IMG/VR virus record: IMGVR_UViG_2681813261_000015
DNA from: a virus
Taxonomy: Duplodnaviria > Heunggongvirae > Uroviricota > Caudoviricetes
Strand: one strand, 5' to 3'
DNA length: 5,567 bases
In this document: positions 168 through 5,567 of the stretch, in pieces
How positions within the stretch are numbered: the stretch's first letter is position 1
Layout of the letters: each line of letters opens with the position of its first letter
Program-made: the position numbers and the translations under genes
The notes under the pieces: generated by a model
Told to the model about the DNA's origin: nothing
Databases searched by the model: none
Seen by the model: only the letters and a program-made list of their open reading frames with translations

Positions 168-425
168 TTGAACAACCAGACAATGACTTTTACCCCTGAA
201 CAATTGCGTAAACACGCGCAGGAAATGCTGCGTCATGCTGAACAACTCGAAAAAACGGGCATAACAAAAGACGCTATCCGTAAAGATATGGTACCCGCGC
301 TTCGGGAACTGATGCAGGCGAAGCATCGCGCACAGAAAGCAGTAGATGAGCTGGTGGACTGTGTGGCAGAGCTGGAAACCAGAGTCGGAAAGTTTGAAAA
401 ACTGGTGCAGGAGGTGCTGCGCTGA
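168..425 (+). CDS. hypothetical small phage protein (nin-region), predicted helical
   Basis: 85-aa ORF starting at TTG 168 with GGAG at 157-160 seven nt upstream; alternative in-frame ATG at 183 has no obvious SD. Stop TGA 423-425 overlaps the rusA ATG at 425-427. No family recognised from memory. Confidence 0.55.
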   Translation: MNNQTMTFTPEQLRKHAQEMLRHAEQLEKTGITKDAIRKDMVPALRELMQAKHRAQKAVDELVDCVAELETRVGKFEKLVQEVLR

Positions 426-799
426 TGCGCCATGAGTTTATTTTACCTTATCCGCCGACGGTGAATACTTACTGGCGACGTCGTGACAACACATATTTTG
501 TATCAAAAGCCGGTGAGCGTTATCGCCGGGATGTGGCGCTTATTGTCCGTCAGCAGCGACTGAAATTAAGCCTGTCCGGAAGACTGGCGATAAAGATTAT
601 TGCAGAGCCACCGGATAAGCGCCGTCGTGACCTGGACAATATCCTGAAAGCACCACTGGATGCACTGACACATGCGGGAGTGTTAATGGACGATGAGCAG
701 TTTGATGAAATCAATATCGTTCGTGGTCAGCCAGTATCTGGTGGACGTCTGGGGGTGAAGATTTACCCCATAATGCATGAAGAGCAGGTCAAAAAATGA
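425..799 (+). CDS. rusA: crossover junction endodeoxyribonuclease RusA (Holliday junction resolvase)
   Basis: 124-aa product carrying LPYPPTVNTYW, RRRDLDN and DALTHAG...DDEQ motifs, which match the RusA family as I recall E. coli RusA (..LPWPPSNNRYY.., ..[20 protein letters not shown]..). Stop TGA 797-799 overlaps the Q start ATG 796-798. Confidence 0.9.
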   Translation: MRHEFILPYPPTVNTYWRRRDNTYFVSKAGERYRRDVALIVRQQRLKLSLSGRLAIKIIAEPPDKRRRDLDNILKAPLDALTHAGVLMDDEQFDEINIVRGQPVSGGRLGVKIYPIMHEEQVKK

Positions 800-1617
800 A
801 ACTGGAAGATTTACCGAAATACTACTCCCCAAAATCCCCTTGCCTGACCGATGCATCGGCCTCAACGTCAAAAGATGCGCTGAGTATCACTGATGTGATG
901 GCCGCGCAGGGCATGACACAGAATCGGGCTGAGATGGGGTTTTCTGCGTTCCTGGGGAAAATGGGCATCAGTATGAATGACAGGGCGCGGGCAACAGAAT
1001 TACTGGCAGATTATGCACTCAGTCGGTGCGATCGTGTGGCGGCGTTGAGAAAACTTCCGGCAGAAATAAAACCGGTAGTGATGCGCATTATGGCTTCGTA
1101 CGCTTTTGAGGATTATGCCCGCAGCGCAGCGAGTAAAAAGCAGTGCCCTTGTTGCTATGGGGAAAAATTTATTGAAAGCGTAGTTTTTACAAACAAGGTC
1201 CAGTATCCGGATGGTAAGCCGCCGGTATGGGCAAAGTGTACGAAAGGTGTGTATCCGTCTTACTGGGAAGAATGGAAAAAAGTCAGGGAGGTGGTAAAAG
1301 TTGCCTGTCCGGAGTGTGGCGGAAAGGGTGAGGTTTCCACCGCCTGTAAGGATTGCCGTGGGCGTGGTGTCGCCATTCATCGTGAAGAGTCGGTAAAACG
1401 TGGTATGCCTGTTATCAGAGACTGCCAGCGTTGTGGTGGTCGTGGCTATGAAAGACTACCATCAACGGAGGCATTTAATGCTATATGCGAGGTGACAAAC
1501 CAGATAACACGCGCGTCATGGGAAAAAACAGTTAAGAAATTTTATGATGCGCTGGTGACCCGGTTTGATATTGAAGAAGCATGGGCTGAGCGGCAGTTAA
1601 AAAAGGTAACTAGGTAA
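796..1617 (+). CDS. Q: late-gene antitermination protein Q (lambda Q family, enlarged variant)
   Basis: 273-aa product. The N-terminal half aligns with lambda Q as recalled (MKLEDLPKYYSPKSP...SITDVMAAQGM... versus MRLESVAKFHSPKSP...SGTDVMAAMGM...), and the C-terminus carries the conserved ...LYDALV.. region. Four CxxC pairs are present (CPCC, CPEC, CKDC, CQRC). It sits directly upstream of a pR'-like promoter. Confidence 0.88.
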   Translation: MKLEDLPKYYSPKSPCLTDASASTSKDALSITDVMAAQGMTQNRAEMGFSAFLGKMGISMNDRARATELLADYALSRCDRVAALRKLPAEIKPVVMRIMASYAFEDYARSAASKKQCPCCYGEKFIESVVFTNKVQYPDGKPPVWAKCTKGVYPSYWEEWKKVREVVKVACPECGGKGEVSTACKDCRGRGVAIHREESVKRGMPVIRDCQRCGGRGYERLPSTEAFNAICEVTNQITRASWEKTVKKFYDALVTRFDIEEAWAERQLKKVTR

Positions 1618-1622
1618 CAAGG

Positions 1623-1662
1623 TTGATTTTTCCGGAATCTGTGGTAAATTCGTCATAACGAT
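1623..1662 (+). promoter_or_regulatory. late promoter pR'-like with sigma70-dependent pause element (candidate Q-utilisation region)
   Basis: -35 TTGATT (1623-1628), 16-nt spacer, -10 TAAATT (1645-1650), 6 nt, then the -10-like AACGAT (1657-1662). The -10 hexamer, the spacing to AACGAT and the AACGAT element itself match lambda pR' as I recall it (TAAATT-TGACTC-AACGAT). Lies immediately downstream of Q. Confidence 0.6.
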
Positions 1663-1697: not shown

Positions 1698-1723
1698 AAC
1701 CCGCCGCCGAGCGGGTTTTTTAT
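1698..1723 (+). terminator. Rho-independent terminator (tR'-like, ends a short pR' leader transcript)
   Basis: Stem CCCGC (1700-1704) / GCGGG (1711-1715) with 6-nt loop, extended by two A-U pairs, followed by TTTTTTAT (1716-1723). Lies about 65 nt downstream of the predicted pR' start. Confidence 0.6.
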
Positions 1724-1841: not shown

Positions 1842-2039
1842 ATGCTAAAACAGCAGGATATGACAGAAACCGCCAGAGTGGTGTTTAATGAATTAAGCGT
1901 TACCGAACCGGCGACAGTCGGGGAGATAGCGCAGAATACTTACCTTTCACGCGAACGCTGCCAGTTAATACTGACCCAGCTGGTTATGGCGGGTCTGGCA
2001 GACTATCAGTTCGGTTGTTACAGACGCCTTCCGCAGTGA
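1842..2039 (+). CDS. small hypothetical protein, possible winged-helix/HTH DNA-binding protein
   Basis: 65-aa ORF with ATG at 1842 and SD AAGGA (1832-1836) 5 nt upstream. The segment ...PATVGEIAQNTYLSRERCQLILTQLVMAGLA.. resembles a helix-turn-helix. The stop codon sits inside a terminator stem. Confidence 0.5.
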   Translation: MLKQQDMTETARVVFNELSVTEPATVGEIAQNTYLSRERCQLILTQLVMAGLADYQFGCYRRLPQ

Positions 2040-2053
2040 AGGCTTTTTTATTT
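2026..2053 (+). terminator. Rho-independent terminator
   Basis: Stem GCCTTC (2026-2031) / GAAGGC (2038-2043) with 6-nt loop, followed by TTTTTTATTT (2044-2053). Overlaps the stop codon of ORF 1842..2039. Confidence 0.6.
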
Positions 2054-2189: not shown

Positions 2190-3248
2190 ATGCTTAATAC
2201 TGTAAAAATATCCAGTTGTGAGTTAATCAACGCCGACTGCCTGGAATTTATCCGGTCGTTACCCGAAAATTCTGTTGACCTGATAGTCACGGACCCGCCG
2301 TACTTTAAAGTGAAGCCTGAGGGCTGGGATAACCAGTGGAAGGGCGACGATGATTACCTGAAGTGGCTGGACCAGTGTCTGGCGCAGTTCTGGCGGGTGC
2401 TGAAACCTGCCGGAAGTCTTTACCTGTTCTGTGGTCATCGCCTGGCATCTGATATCGAAATCATGATGCGTGAACGCTTCAGTGTGCTGAACCATATTAT
2501 CTGGGCGAAGCCGTCCGGACGCTGGAACGGATGCAACAAGGAAAGCCTGCGGGCGTATTTCCCCGCCACAGAGCGCATTCTGTTCGCGGAACATTATCAG
2601 GGGCCGTATCGTCCGAAAGATGCCGGGTATGCGGCGAAGGGCAGTGCACTGAAACAGCATGTGATGGCCCCGCTGATTTCTTACTTTCGTGATGCGCGAG
2701 CTGCCCTGGGGATAACGGCAAAACAGATTGCAGATGCCACAGGAAAGAAAAACATGGTGTCGCACTGGTTCAGTGCCGGTCAGTGGCAGTTGCCGAATGA
2801 AAGCGATTATCTGAAATTACAGGCGCTGTTTGCCCGGGTGGCAGAAGAGAAGCATCGGCGTGGTGAACTGGAAAAGCTCCACCACCAGCTGGTGGATACG
2901 TATACCTCACTGAACCGGCAGTATGCGGAGCTGCTGAGTGAATATAAACATCTGCGGCGGTATTTTGGCGTGACGGTGCAGGTGCCGTATACCGATGTGT
3001 GGACGCATAAACCGGTGCAGTTCTATCCCGGGAAACATCCGTGCGAAAAACCGGCAGAAATGCTGCAGCAGATAATCAGCGCTAGCAGTCGTCCGGGTGA
3101 CCTGATTGCAGATTTTTTCATGGGGTTGGGTTCGACAGTGAAAGCGGCACTGGCGCTCGGGCGTCGTGCAATTGGCGTTGAGCTGGAGACTGAACGTTTT
3201 GAGCAGACGGTTCGGGAAGTACAGGATTTAGTCAGCCAGAACGGATGA
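2190..3248 (+). CDS. DNA methyltransferase, beta-class (N6-adenine/N4-cytosine family; DPPY motif suggests N6-adenine)
   Basis: 352-aa product with catalytic motif IV (VTDPPYF) near the N-terminus and AdoMet motif I (DFFMGLGST) near the C-terminus, i.e. the circularly permuted beta-class order. A ~150-aa central insert contains an HTH-like segment (ITAKQIADATGK) and is probably the target-recognition domain. No restriction endonuclease gene is adjacent. Confidence 0.88.
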   Translation: MLNTVKISSCELINADCLEFIRSLPENSVDLIVTDPPYFKVKPEGWDNQWKGDDDYLKWLDQCLAQFWRVLKPAGSLYLFCGHRLASDIEIMMRERFSVLNHIIWAKPSGRWNGCNKESLRAYFPATERILFAEHYQGPYRPKDAGYAAKGSALKQHVMAPLISYFRDARAALGITAKQIADATGKKNMVSHWFSAGQWQLPNESDYLKLQALFARVAEEKHRRGELEKLHHQLVDTYTSLNRQYAELLSEYKHLRRYFGVTVQVPYTDVWTHKPVQFYPGKHPCEKPAEMLQQIISASSRPGDLIADFFMGLGSTVKAALALGRRAIGVELETERFEQTVREVQDLVSQNG

Positions 3249-3288: not shown

Positions 3289-3364
3289 GGCCCTTTAGCT
3301 CAGTGGTGAGAGCGAGCGACTCATAATCGCCAGGTCGCTGGTTCAAATCCAGCAAGGGCCACCA
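3289..3364 (+). tRNA. ileZ: tRNA-Ile2 (anticodon CAU, ileX/ileZ-like; formally Met by anticodon)
   Basis: Hand-folded cloverleaf: acceptor GGCCCTT/AAGGGCC, D-stem GCTC/GAGC, anticodon loop CTCATAA, T-arm GCTGG-TTCAAAT-CCAGC, encoded CCA. Near-identical in layout to E. coli tRNA-Ile2 as recalled. Symbol assigned from the Q-tRNA gene order known from Stx phages. Confidence 0.85.
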
Positions 3365-3371
3365 TCACATA

Positions 3372-3448
3372 CCGCCATTAGCTCATCAGGAAAGAGCGCC
3401 AGCCTTCGAAGCTGGCTGCGCGGGGTTCAAGTCCCCGATGGCGGTCCA
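3372..3448 (+). tRNA. argN: tRNA-Arg (anticodon UCG)
   Basis: Hand-folded cloverleaf: acceptor CCGCCAT/ATGGCGG, D-stem GCTC/GAGC, anticodon stem CCAGC/GCTGG with loop CTTCGAA, T-arm CGGGG-TTCAAGT-CCCCG, encoded CCA. Symbol assigned by gene order only. Confidence 0.8.
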
Positions 3449-3461
3449 TTATCTGCATCAT

Positions 3462-3538
3462 GCGTTGTTAGCTCAGCCGGACAGAGCAATTGCCTTCTAA
3501 GCAATCGGTCACTGGTTCGAATCCAGTACAGCGCGCCA
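3462..3538 (+). tRNA. argO: tRNA-Arg (anticodon UCU, decodes rare AGA)
   Basis: Hand-folded cloverleaf: acceptor GCGTTGT/ACAGCGC (one G-U pair), D-stem GCTC/GAGC, anticodon stem ATTGC/GCAAT with loop CTTCTAA, T-arm ACTGG-TTCGAAT-CCAGT, encoded CCA. Symbol assigned by gene order only. Confidence 0.8.
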
Positions 3539-3648: not shown

Positions 3649-4002
3649 TTGATTGAGTGTTTGTTATACGGTCTAATGGTTTTTTCAGCATTAAATATTT
3701 ATCATTCATATGGTGTGGGTAGAGTGAATATTGATGAGGCGTCGGGGTGTTTCATCCTTAGGCAGCGTATTGATATAGTCAATGCAGCACGAGCAAAGGC
3801 CTTCAGCCGTTTGACAGTTTTGTTCTGTACTCCTGATCGTCTTTCGGGAAGAGACGTTATTATTCTGAATAGTGATGCTATACAGAGGGTTTGCGATGAG
3901 TTCATGGTTGCTAATTCAGAATTATTTGCTCTTGTTCAGGAGTACAACAGAATAGCCAGGACCTGTGGTATGGATGAACTTCGGATTACTCATCTGGGGT
4001 AG
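3649..4002 (+). CDS. orphan hypothetical protein in AT-rich cargo DNA (start uncertain)
   Basis: 117-aa ORF whose first codon is TTG at 3649; first in-frame ATG is at 3676. No convincing SD at either. The region is visibly AT-rich compared with the flanking phage genes. No domain recognised. Confidence 0.35.
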   Translation: MIECLLYGLMVFSALNIYHSYGVGRVNIDEASGCFILRQRIDIVNAARAKAFSRLTVLFCTPDRLSGRDVIILNSDAIQRVCDEFMVANSELFALVQEYNRIARTCGMDELRITHLG

Positions 4003-4322
4003 ATACATATCTGGATTATCACCTGTTACGGTAAAAAGTGATTGCTTACTGTTTTTGTGAATGGCATTGCAGCAGCCGGATAATGTCAGTGCTGGCTGAC
4101 GGTGTGCTGGTGGCGGGTGTGGTGGTTGTTGCTTTCCCGTTGCTGAAAAAGAAAACGCCAGACTGTTAGCCGGGTATCAGTTAGCGGGAGAAATTTTTAA
4201 ATACTTCACAATTCAGGCGGTTGACTGTTGTCTGGTTTGCGGGGAGTTTGTTAAAAGAAACTGGCATGGTGAATCCCCCTGTGCGGAGGGGCAATCAGCG
4301 AGTAGGTATATGGGATAATCGC

Positions 4323-4420
4323 GGATTCAGGTGCTGGTACTGAATTCACCGGGAGGCACCCGGCATCATGCAATGGCACATAGCGCCACTCTCCAGCCCT
4401 CTCCGGAGGGGCTTTTCTGT
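4323..4420 (+). ncRNA. candidate small structured RNA, unit A of a tandem paralogous array
   Basis: Hairpin 1 at 4323-4347 (8-bp stem with one G-U, 9-nt loop); hairpin 2 at 4349-4363 (CCGGG/CCCGG); terminator stem-loop CCCTC-TCCG-GAGGG at 4397-4410 followed by CTTTTCTGT. An extended -10-like element TGgGATAAT (4311-4319) would place the transcript start near 4326. No ORF of 60 aa or more overlaps. Confidence 0.35.
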
Positions 4421-4547
4421 GCCGGATACATCACAGTTTCTGGAACCTTAGGTACTACAGTATCAGTCAGGGTGCTATATTTTCAGATGTGATGAAAGCC
4501 TGTCAGCAGGCAGGGCGTATCGGAAATGACCCAGTAGAGAAAACGTT

Positions 4548-4635
4548 GACTCAGATACCGGTGCTGAGTTACCGGGAAACCGGCATCACATGACCGCTAT
4601 CCTTCCAGGCCCATCCGCTCCGGTGGGCCTTTTTA
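4548..4635 (+). ncRNA. candidate small structured RNA, unit B (paralogue of unit A)
   Basis: Hairpin 1' at 4548-4570 (7-bp stem, 9-nt loop); hairpin 2' CCGG-GAAA-CCGG at 4572-4583 (GNRA tetraloop); strong terminator GGCCCA...TGGGCC at 4608-4629 followed by TTTTTACTG. The arms align with unit A and show one compensatory base-pair change (T-A in A, C-G in B). No clear promoter upstream. Confidence 0.35.
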
Positions 4636-4676
4636 CTGCAGAAAACAGGTTCCCCGTTAAATGCTATGTTGCTCAC

Positions 4677-4757
4677 AATTCAGNNNNNNNNNNNNNNNNN
4701 NNNNNNNNNNNNNNNNNNNNCCCTCTCCGGAGGGGCTGTTTATATTGATTTTGTCAG
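4677..4757 (+). ncRNA. candidate unit C of the same array, core masked by N-run
   Basis: Starts with AATTCAG (4677-4683), the same left arm as hairpin 1 of unit A. It is preceded by an extended -10-like TGcTATGTT (4662-4670). After the Ns comes CCCTCTCCGGAGGGGC (4721-4736), identical to the unit A terminator hairpin, followed by a T-rich tail. Confidence 0.25.
4684..4720. other. run of 37 ambiguous bases (N); masked or unresolved sequence
   Basis: Literal n characters in the input. Falls inside the repeat array, consistent with an assembly gap or collapse caused by the repeats. Confidence 0.95.
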
Positions 4758-4769
4758 ATGTGAGTAAAC

Positions 4770-4803
4770 TCCTTATGGACTTTGTTGTTTTAGTCCATAA
4801 GGA
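4770..4803. repeat. perfect 12-bp inverted repeat with 10-nt loop at the 3' end of the minus-strand ORF
   Basis: TCCTTATGGACT (4770-4781), loop TTGTTGTTTT, AGTCCATAAGGA (4792-4803). All 12 pairs are Watson-Crick. Overlaps the stop codon (TAA, complement of 4773-4775) of ORF 4773..5108. Confidence 0.5.
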
Positions 4804-5353: not shown

Positions 5354-5542
5354 ATGGTGGAAAGAACCATGGCATTTAAACACTATGATGTTGTCAGGGC
5401 GGCGCCGCCGTCAGATCTTGCGGAAAAGCTGACACATAAACTGAAAGAGGGCTGGCAGCCGTTTGGTAGTCCGGTGGCCATAACCCCTTATACCCTGAGG
5501 TGTACTGGCAATAGCGGACACTACCATTTGTTCTTTTTTTAA
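5354..5542 (+). CDS. small conserved lambdoid late-region protein that typically precedes the lysis cassette (DUF1737-like, from memory)
   Basis: ORF with ATG at 5354; a more likely start is the in-frame ATG at 5369, with GGTGG 8 nt upstream. The motif ...KHYDVVRAAPPSDLAEKLTHKLKEGWQPFGSPVA... matches a small protein I recall immediately upstream of holin genes in E. coli lambdoid prophages. The C-terminus looks atypical. Confidence 0.65.
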   Translation: MVERTMAFKHYDVVRAAPPSDLAEKLTHKLKEGWQPFGSPVAITPYTLRCTGNSGHYHLFFF

Positions 5543-5567
5543 GCAGCCATCTGATGATATTTTTCCC

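Follow-up and report, generated by a model that had tools for sequence, protein, structure and literature searches.

Late-gene antiterminators related to lambda Q are grouped in Pfam family PF03589, named the Q-lambda family, with the Q21 and Q82 families corresponding to PF06530 and PF06323, respectively (PMC9388147). The structural and mechanistic work that we found on the Q-lambda family (PMC9388147) all uses lambda Q itself. In lambda Q, the N-terminal residues 1-44/60 are disordered in the free protein and, on loading, form a torus (nozzle) at the RNA-exit channel. Residues 110-112 contact the zinc-binding domain of the RNA polymerase beta' subunit, residues 114-152 constitute the arm, and the helix-turn-helix (HTH) is formed by body helices H4/H5 (PMC9388147). 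We found no description of a long-form insertion, of a second zinc ribbon or of QuuQ/YdfT in the searchable literature, and an article on the pR' regions of Stx phages (PMC6266700) contains nothing on Q architecture.

Here, we describe a long-form member of this family. The window (the whole stretch of DNA analysed, 5,567 nucleotides) carries an open reading frame (ORF) whose start ATG overlaps the rusA stop codon as ATGA (Table 1). Its 273-aa product matches the Pfam 'Antiterm' model PF03589 at 183.7 bits, against a cut-off of 26.7 (E=6.2e-55). It also matches PHROG 127 ('anti-termination protein Q-like') across aa 1-273 at 1.4e-110, and lambda Q (7UBM_Q) at E=1.5e-40 in phmmer. No Pfam match at E<=0.1 was found to the Q21 or Q82 family. 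The AF2 model of the protein (pLDDT 90.2, pTM 0.77) has Q-lambda structures as all of its top eight PDB fold matches in Foldseek, the best being chain Q of the engaged loading complex 7UBN (target-normalised TM 0.82, E=9e-16). A Foldseek search of BFVD returned nothing significant (best E=6e-3). Family match, homology and predicted fold all agree with the initial identification of the protein as a lambda-type Q.

We consider it highly probable that the following hold together: the ORF belongs to a lambdoid prophage and encodes Q, its antiterminator of late-gene transcription, it contains a tandem zinc-ribbon insertion, and this insertion serves as an accessory contact. As a gene, it is an ordinary, already catalogued and very common prophage late-gene switch protein. 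At least 1000 contigs already carry the exact 273-aa sequence under the annotation 'antitermination protein', and the phage record mEp460_ev081 encodes a protein 98.9% identical to it. The matches to the query also include records of Stx2c-converting phages; in Stx phages, the toxin genes sit downstream of Q.

Table 1. Coordinates of the Q gene, the segments of its product and the downstream late-transcription signals, numbered from the first letter of the window.
Feature	Position	Strand	Basis
Q-lambda-family late-gene antiterminator gene, long form, 273 aa	796..1617	+	ORF listing, Pfam, lambda Q homology, AF2 model
N-terminal segment, aa 1-60	796..975	+	50% identical to lambda Q 1-60
Helical Q body, first half, aa 61-113, ending in the conserved DYxRSAA motif	976..1134	+	aligns to lambda Q 61-113
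Insertion, predicted second zinc ribbon, aa 114-181	1135..1338	+	gap against lambda Q, between lambda residues 113 and 116
Lambda-type zinc-ribbon arm, aa 182-218, ligands C184, C187, C210, C213	1339..1449	+	aligns to lambda Q 116-152
Second half of Q body, with helix-turn-helix DNA-binding motif and C-terminal helix, aa 219-273	1450..1614	+	aligns to lambda Q 153-207
pR'-type late promoter	1623..1650	+	parallels lambda pR', P22 pR' and the annotated phi80 pR'/Q site, position by position
pR' -35, TTGATT	1623-1628	+	parallel to lambda, P22
pR' spacer, 16 nt, TTTCCGGAATCTGTGG, candidate Q-binding element	1629-1644	+	parallel to lambda, P22, phi80
pR' -10, TAAATT	1645-1650	+	identical to lambda
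AACGAT, putative sigma-dependent pause element (-10-like)	1657..1662	+	analogy with lambda and P22 pR'
Intrinsic terminator tR'	1698..1723	+	terminator scan: 7-bp stem, 5 GC pairs, then T tract
Second terminator-like hairpin, at the end of a 65-aa ORF, in the late transcription path	2026..2049	+	terminator scan

The extra length of the protein is internal. Query residues 1-113 match lambda Q 1-113 and residues 182-273 match lambda Q 116-207, in phmmer and in a seven-protein alignment throughout which G39 is unchanged. Since both flanks align collinearly to lambda Q, all of the extra length is accounted for by one insertion of 66-68 aa at the junction of the body and the zinc-ribbon arm. The preliminary description had given the lengths correctly, at 273 aa against 207 aa for lambda Q, which has two CxxC pairs and one zinc ribbon; alignment confirms that the additional residues are at neither terminus. 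Predicted helices in the AF2 model span residues 60-80 and 92-108 in the first half of the body, and 223-231 and 239-272 in the second.

Four CxxC pairs are present, at aa 117-120 (CPCC), 171-174 (CPEC), 184-187 (CKDC) and 210-213 (CQRC). The protein contains 13 cysteines, and only 116 of 100,000 residue shuffles yielded at least four CxxC. All eight cysteines of the four pairs are conserved in long-form homologues. The earlier count of four pairs against the single zinc module of lambda Q was correct. C184, C187, C210 and C213 align to lambda Q C118, C121, C144 and C147 and are invariant in 64 sequences; CKDC and CQRC are, from this alignment, the counterparts of lambda Q's own zinc ligands. 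The other two pairs had been described as spread across the central region and the zinc-binding module. They are indeed additional and conserved, but they are not scattered: both fall within the one contiguous insertion, which adjoins the N-terminal side of the lambda-type zinc ribbon.

Judging from its sequence and its modelled fold, this insertion most likely represents a second zinc ribbon in tandem with the first. It consists of a CPCC knuckle (C117, C120), a hairpin (125-136/159-170) and a CPEC knuckle (C171, C174). Secondary structure assigned by DSSP to the AF2 model predicts that the hairpin is a long beta-hairpin, which brings the two extra knuckles together. When the insert profile is compared with the arm profile in hhalign, the two align with a probability of 90% (E=1.7e-6), the first motif with the third and the second with the fourth. 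The four insertion cysteines are kept in essentially all long-form representatives, while hairpin length ranges from approximately 0 to 50 aa. It is thus very probable that C117, C120, C171 and C174 hold a second zinc, at the foot of the sequence-variable hairpin; the zinc count and cysteine pairing are read from the secondary structure of the model.

The sequence downstream of the gene has the anatomy of a late promoter unit. A pR' had been proposed at 1623-1662, and we find a -35, a -10 and AACGAT at the expected places within it. The pR' regions of lambda and P22 have this AACGAT hexamer too, likewise 6 nt from the -10. By analogy, the transcript probably starts at the first base of AACGAT; the 5' nucleotide of the late RNA is marked in the P22 record. 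We assigned pR' by alignment to lambda, P22 and phi80. A generic sigma70 promoter scan of 1500-2300 called no promoter, missing pR' because only 8 of its 12 hexamer positions match the consensus. Terminators are annotated at positions equivalent to tR' in phi80, ES18 and P22, and similar stem-plus-T-tract sequences occur at that position in mEp460 and mEp237. The late region under Q carries a DNA methyltransferase gene, three tRNAs, an IraM-like gene and an sRNA. We also searched for a paQ-like CII site (TTGC-N6-TTGC) in and near the gene. This candidate was rejected: there were two one-mismatch matches, fewer than the approximately eight expected by chance, and none lay inside the gene.

Homology with lambda Q suggests how the protein could act. 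The HTH body and the zinc-ribbon arm would bind the candidate Q-binding element (QBE) in the adjacent pR' spacer (1629-1644). The arm would carry two Zn(Cys)4 centres, with C184, C187, C210 and C213 keeping the zinc site of lambda. Q would then engage RNA polymerase stalled in a sigma70-dependent pause by AACGAT (1657-1662), and the conserved N-terminal 45-60 residues would fold into a nozzle within the RNA-exit channel. The polymerase so modified would pass tR' (1698-1723) and the terminators after it, and go on to transcribe the methyltransferase, tRNA and lysis genes. The insertion lies within the stretch that in lambda Q touches the beta' zinc-binding domain of RNA polymerase, and an accessory-contact role is therefore favoured. 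By this analogy, the extra module most likely makes an accessory protein or DNA-backbone contact during loading and is not a base-specific determinant of the QBE.

The long form is widespread within the family. It accounts for approximately 35 of the 45 full-length clusters at 50% identity, with phi80 Q and E. coli K-12 YdfT among its members. The insertion site and the cysteine columns are common to the query, phi80 Q, YdfT, mEp237 Q, ES18 gp73 and approximately 35 representative clusters. The preliminary description had presented the protein as enlarged, as if it were an oddity; instead, most of the family has the long-form architecture, and this exact protein is itself abundant.

The insertion could nevertheless be a stable but dispensable decoration, a duplicated knuckle pair at a surface junction that is neutrally gained and lost. 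Lambda Q and P22 gp23 work without it. Short forms occur in at least three lineages; outside the insert, one of them (P0163) shares 82% identity with a long form (P0133). Because short forms recur in this way, the module may be dispensable, and any claim that it is an essential accessory contact is therefore weakened. A natural variant (P0004) persists in 16 cluster members despite having lost the first knuckle, the hairpin is almost absent from some long forms (28-aa insert), and in general it shows little sequence conservation besides its variable length. Against neutrality, the extra cysteines and their adjacent glycines are at least 90% conserved across long forms that are only approximately 25-30% identical to the query, and the long form dominates the diversity of the family. 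Furthermore, the hairpin is 60% identical between the query and phi80 Q, while the remaining protein is only 20-46% identical. This excess of likeness in the hairpin suggests that it has been under selection or has been exchanged. On balance, we regard dispensability as doubtful.

A role for the extra module in DNA recognition was raised in the preliminary description, in which an additional contact would set or broaden QBE specificity or alter the pause requirement. The zinc-ribbon arm of lambda Q contacts DNA at QBE positions 11-13 (PMC9388147), and our hhalign comparison indicates that the insertion duplicates this DNA-contacting arm. The insertion also has a net charge of approximately +4, counted from the sequence, and its hairpin shows the hypervariability often seen in specificity elements. 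However, neither the length nor the position of the pR' spacer differs from that in short-form phages, which leaves no space for an extra subsite between the -35 and the -10. Spacer sequence also tracks the HTH body and not the inserted hairpin, in the two comparators on which this argument is based. The Q of mEp237 is 61% identical to the query in the HTH body and only 28% in the hairpin, and its spacer is near-identical; phi80 Q has the similar hairpin but only 20% identity in the HTH, and its spacer is different. The nearly hairpin-free long forms also speak against a specificity element. Thus, a changed QBE specificity is mildly contradicted by two comparators, and a changed pause requirement finds no support, as lambda has the same AACGAT at the same spacing from the -10. 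We consider a role of this kind unlikely.

A further reading, less probable still, takes the prophage to be decaying and its Q gene to be an inactive remnant that has lost its antiterminator activity. Cryptic prophages are common in E. coli, and YdfT belongs to one of them, Qin; in addition, there is an assembly gap in the window, and at its right end the DUF1737 ORF looks altered. However, the full-length Q ORF is intact and retains every conserved residue, the pR', pause and terminator unit is intact, and the same or nearly the same protein recurs both on those contigs and in mEp460_ev081.

Finally, an xG follows every CxxC, giving the DnaJ-type CxxCxGxG pattern (the first pair reads CPCCYGEK), but it is extremely improbable that the four motifs together make up a cysteine-rich domain of the DnaJ type, in which zinc pairing would be crossed (1+4, 2+3) and the activity chaperone-like or thiol-disulfide. 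The DnaJ_CXXCXGXG model (PF00684) matches at 28.4 bits (E=1.9e-6), below its Pfam gathering threshold of 32.7, and TIGR02349 (DnaJ) matches only locally, at 27.9 bits against a threshold of 377. Foldseek gives weak matches to DnaJA2 and DnaJ CR regions (E~1) and, in BFVD, to small phage DnaJ-CR-like proteins, and one homologue is mis-named 'chaperone protein DnaJ'. Against this, Pfam and NCBIfam show no match in the 273-aa protein to a J domain or to the DnaJ C-terminal substrate-binding domains, and full-length homology is to Q-lambda. We rejected DnaJ membership on the sub-threshold profile score and the lack of both domains. The lambda Q counterparts of motifs 3 and 4 jointly bind one zinc (PMC9388147), and the predicted hairpin brings motifs 1 and 2 together, so that the topology is probably tandem and not crossed. 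From sequence and model, zinc pairing would be 1+2 and 3+4. The two systems are alike in having four CxxCxG(x)G motifs, presumably two zinc centres, and a weak resemblance in sequence and fold; they differ in that the query module is embedded in a Q-lambda fold.

K-12 YdfT (QuuQ, b1559; 250 aa; cryptic prophage Qin), mEp237 Q, ES18 gp73 and mEp460 Q all have two extra CxxC knuckles at the same junction. Their inserts are approximately 45-72 aa, and their hairpins are shorter than or unrelated to that of the query (14-28% identity). By sequence, these hairpins are different alleles of the variable part. The Q of mEp237 is 55% identical to the query overall, and the pR' spacer downstream of it is nearly identical.

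Phi80 Q (gp17, 269 aa; annotated 'late transcription antitermination protein; similar to lambda Q') is likewise a long form with all eight cysteines, and it shares with the query the insertion site and the related hairpin. Its annotated pR', Q-binding site and terminators are at equivalent positions. It differs from the query in overall sequence (41% identical), above all in the HTH half of the body, in its third motif (CxC in place of CxxC) and in its pR' spacer (TTCGCGGAAAAACTGGA). The DNA-binding regions of lambda and phi80 Q were reportedly studied by Guo and Roberts (J Bacteriol 2004).

Lambda Q (PDB 4MO1, 7UBJ-7UBN) and P22 gp23 belong to the same family, PF03589, as the query. Lambda Q is approximately 40% identical to it in global alignment and 28.8% in tblastn. 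The two share the four zinc-ligand cysteines, the predicted body, the HTH, the N-terminal nozzle segment and the gene position; they also agree exactly in the -10 and AACGAT, and their pR' regions are arranged alike (-35, spacer, terminator). In contrast, the pR' spacer that is the candidate QBE reads TTTCCGGAATCTGTGG in the query and TATTGAATAAAATTGGG in lambda, and the transcript before tR' is approximately 65 nt in the query and approximately 190 nt in lambda.

Lambda Q and P22 gp23 also lack the stretch corresponding to query aa 114-181, with C117, C120, C171, C174 and the long beta-hairpin. The sole structural model that we found is thus without a module present in most family members, and the role of the second zinc ribbon would show whether loading as seen for lambda Q holds for the Q proteins in control of late genes in most enterobacterial prophages with a Q of this family. 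More speculatively, and with a rather low probability in our view, the second zinc ribbon and hypervariable hairpin could serve the majority form as a functional module for loading, or could be a surface under diversifying selection by host or competing-phage factors. A loading module might, for example, alter the kinetics of loading or the dependence on NusA through one more contact, be it to RNA polymerase, to NusA or to upstream DNA. If so, the textbook lambda Q would be a reduced outlier, unrepresentative of how most members of its family load.

The window encodes a Q-lambda antiterminator that carries an additional, probably zinc-binding module. The protein scores 183.7 bits against the Pfam family PF03589 'Antiterm' (cut-off 26.7) and is covered end to end by PHROG 127 'anti-termination protein Q-like'. 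Yin et al. (PMC9388147) equate PF03589 with the Q-lambda family and keep it apart from Q21 (PF06530) and Q82 (PF06323); neither of these two matched the protein in the Pfam profile search. A sequence search of the PDB returns lambda Q as the top match (7UBM, E=1.5e-40), and the alignment comprises two blocks in collinear order. Profile, collinear homology, putative zinc ligands, predicted fold and genomic position, which are all the Q-lambda features testable from sequence and model, place the protein in this family. The observation in the preliminary description, which had recognized an enlarged lambda-type Q, is accurate, and its classification is largely right.

The four CxxC pairs of the protein are not a chance pattern. 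Translation gives 13 Cys and four CxxC pairs, while the lambda record and PDB entries give 207 aa and two CxxC motifs for lambda Q, in agreement with the lengths and pair count first reported. At least four CxxC arise in just 116 of 100,000 residue shuffles, and relatives keep all eight CxxC Cys; this is why chance can be set aside. Every pair is followed by xG, forming the CxxCxGxG pattern known from DnaJ. The likeness is real, and lambda Q's own two motifs share it. Membership of the DnaJ domain family is nevertheless rejected, as PF00684 reaches 28.4 bits, below the threshold of 32.7, the J domain is absent from the profile matches, and the presumed zinc topology is tandem, whereas that of DnaJ is crossed.

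The whole length difference from lambda Q is a single internal insertion. Residues 1-113 align to lambda Q 1-113 and residues 182-273 to lambda Q 116-207; these two collinear blocks therefore confine the extra length to aa 114-181 (nt 1135-1338). The body of lambda Q comprises residues 61-113 and 153-207, and its arm is the zinc ribbon 114-152 (PMC9388147). Thus, the insertion lies exactly at the body-to-arm junction. The lambda Q zinc ligands C118/C121 and C144/C147 correspond to CKDC and CQRC. The extra Cys pairs, originally assigned to the central region and the zinc-binding module, are real, but both (CPCC and CPEC) fall within the one insertion.

The insertion is best read as a tandemly duplicated zinc ribbon. 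An AlphaFold2 prediction from a 64-sequence alignment (mean pLDDT 90.2, pTM 0.77) has eight significant PDB fold matches, all of them Q-lambda, the best being 7UBN chain Q (target-normalised TM 0.82), an engaged loading complex containing NusA. In the model, two 12-residue strands (125-136 and 159-170) form a long hairpin, with lower confidence at its tip (pLDDT about 78). CPCC immediately precedes the first of these strands and CPEC immediately follows the second, and this predicted order of knuckle, hairpin and knuckle matches how a zinc ribbon is laid out. Furthermore, a profile of the insertion aligns to the lambda-type arm profile (probability 90%, E=1.7e-6), with motif 1 on motif 3 and motif 2 on motif 4. 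From this alignment and from lambda Q, where motifs 3 and 4 are known to pair, we infer the Cys pairing and metal binding of the insertion, which would give two putative Zn(Cys)4 sites.

A pR'-type late promoter unit starts five bases past the Q stop and corresponds at each position to the pR' of lambda and P22. Its AACGAT has the sequence and spacing of the lambda sigma-dependent pause element. The same arrangement occurs in phi80, with annotated pR', Q site and terminators, and in mEp460, mEp237, ES18 and YeP2. On the upstream side, the Q start ATG overlaps the TGA stop of rusA as ATGA, which suggests that the two genes may be translationally coupled. By analogy with lambda Q, we infer four steps: the protein would bind the spacer element via its helix-turn-helix (HTH) and arm, then dock on polymerase paused at AACGAT; its conserved N-terminal segment would fold as a nozzle in the RNA-exit channel; and polymerase so modified would pass tR' and then the second terminator into the late region. 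The N-terminal segment is 50% identical to that of lambda Q, and G39 is invariant across a seven-protein alignment (A2).

Features of the window and cysteine pairs of its Q protein
Feature	Position	Strand	Details
rusA, RusA-family Holliday-junction resolvase gene	425-799	+	124 aa; Pfam RusA 1.8e-16; overlaps Q at 796-799
Q antiterminator ORF	796-1617	+	intact, 273 aa
CxxC pair 1, CPCC	C117-C120 of Q
CxxC pair 2, CPEC	C171-C174 of Q
CxxC pair 3, CKDC	C184-C187 of Q
CxxC pair 4, CQRC	C210-C213 of Q
-35 TTGATT	1623-1628
16-nt spacer TTTCCGGAATCTGTGG	1629-1644
-10 TAAATT	1645-1650		identical to lambda's
AACGAT	1657-1662		six bases past -10
GGG			after AACGAT
Intrinsic terminator (tR')	1698-1723
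65-aa ORF	1842-2049	+	just past tR'; PHROG 331, unknown function
Second terminator-like hairpin	2026-2049		end of 65-aa ORF
N6/N4 DNA methyltransferase	2190-3248	+	352 aa; PF01555 8e-42
Three tRNA genes: Met-type anticodon CAT, Arg TCG, Arg TCT	3289-3538	+	putative Q-dependent late leader
117-aa ORF	3649-4002	+	PHROG 2873
sRNA STnc100	4235-4424	+	strong Rfam match, 122.5 bits vs gathering score 47
37-N run	4684-4720		masked or assembly gap
DUF1737 ORF	5354-5542	+	62 aa; Pfam 1.5e-15 over aa 8-50

Our preferred reading is that the insertion provides an accessory contact, whether to polymerase, to NusA or to the DNA backbone, or that it is no more than a stabilised, extended arm. Lambda Q residues 110-112, 117 and 122-126 touch the RNA polymerase beta' zinc-binding domain (PMC9388147), so that a ribbon inserted between lambda residues 113 and 116 would project from this interface. 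The SAA motif flanking the insertion is conserved in the alignment. That the insertion is a dispensable decoration is conceivable but doubtful. The initial proposal that the extra module could alter Q-binding-element specificity appears improbable. mEp237 Q is 61% identical to the window protein across the HTH half of its body and only 28% in the hairpin, and its pR' spacer is nearly identical (TTTCCCGAATCTGTGT); phi80 Q is 60% identical in the hairpin and only 20% in the HTH half, and its spacer differs (TTCGCGGAAAAACTGGA). Both comparisons argue against the hairpin as specificity element; moreover, the window spacer does not exceed those of short-form phages in length, and the pause element shows no change. 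It is because of these observations on spacers and pause element that we prefer the accessory contact or extended arm, in a ranking that draws on few comparators and places specificity lower.

Beyond tR', the 65-aa ORF has weak winged-helix matches (e.g., TrmB, E=0.003), and the catalytic profile of the methyltransferase is interrupted by about 130 aa, within which lies a weak HTH_3 match (aa 167-195). In phage mEp460_ev081, tRNA genes directly follow tR'; this ORF and the methylase thus look like an insertion of late-leader cargo. The tRNA cluster of the window resembles that upstream of stx in Stx phages. In the E. coli genomes that match, RefSeq calls the 117-aa ORF 'anti-adapter protein IraM'; it is of a host-physiology type (RpoS stabilisation) and lies within the prophage late-leader cargo. 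CCCTCTCCGGAGGGGC recurs at 4397 and 4721, with diverged copies at 4277 and 4614 (STnc100 and the 4440-4770 region), and ATATTTTCAGATGTGA recurs at 4477 and 4748 (4440-4770 region). These repeats suggest a second, related sRNA-like unit past STnc100, at 4440-4770, which the N run breaks; ORFs called across that run are meaningless. The best E. coli genome matches end at 5498, with the C-terminal end of the DUF1737 ORF and the last roughly 70 bases (5499-5567) outside, and the first roughly 420 bases are likewise unmatched. These ends might be recombination or mosaic junctions. The mEp460_ev081 record also labels a 349-aa protein upstream of rusA (L001 3568-4617) 'Phage antitermination protein Q'. 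Because its position matches that of YdfU beside YdfT in K-12 Qin, the label is probably an annotation carry-over and not a second Q.

The long form is widespread among relatives of the window protein. Searched exhaustively, 1.84 billion representatives at 50% identity yielded 236 relatives. The insertion is present in about 35 of the roughly 45 full-length representatives (28 to 77 aa, with four extra Cys in all carriers), and only about 8 are lambda-like short forms. Thus, "enlarged" is correct in comparison with lambda Q but describes the majority form. The two knuckles make up the conserved portion; the intervening hairpin ranges from near zero to about 50 residues and is little conserved in sequence. 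In one relative (P0004; 272 aa, 88% identical, 16 cluster members), the unrelated stretch KNSALLSRKK takes the place of the first knuckle, and this looks like a compensated frameshift. In another, P0163 (200 aa), the whole module is precisely deleted relative to the long P0133. These two are 82% identical outside the insert, and no other member of the set exceeds 47% identity to P0163; it follows that loss or gain of the module in one piece has happened at least twice.

NCBI lists the identical 273-aa sequence under the name 'MULTISPECIES: antitermination protein [Enterobacteriaceae]', found on at least 1000 contigs, mEp460_ev081 encodes a 98.9% identical copy, and hundreds of complete E. coli genomes, O104:H4 strains among them, match the locus at about 95-96% identity. 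The architecture is common and already annotated. Guo and Roberts (J Bacteriol 2004) reportedly set the DNA-binding regions of lambda Q against those of phi80 Q, work that must therefore have included the long form. Neither the long-form insertion nor a function of YdfT was found described in the literature searched, and the Q-lambda structural papers (including PMC9388147) cover the 207-aa protein only. The insertion occupies the same site in phi80 Q (269 aa; its annotation reads 'similar to lambda Q'), E. coli K-12 YdfT (250 aa, prophage Qin), mEp237 Q and ES18 gp73, whereas lambda Q and P22 gp23 are without it. Since the insertion is common among representatives and the exact protein is widespread, the long form is, judged by sequence, the norm and lambda the reduced form. 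Most members carry a conserved, probably zinc-binding module that is missing from lambda Q, the family's model protein.
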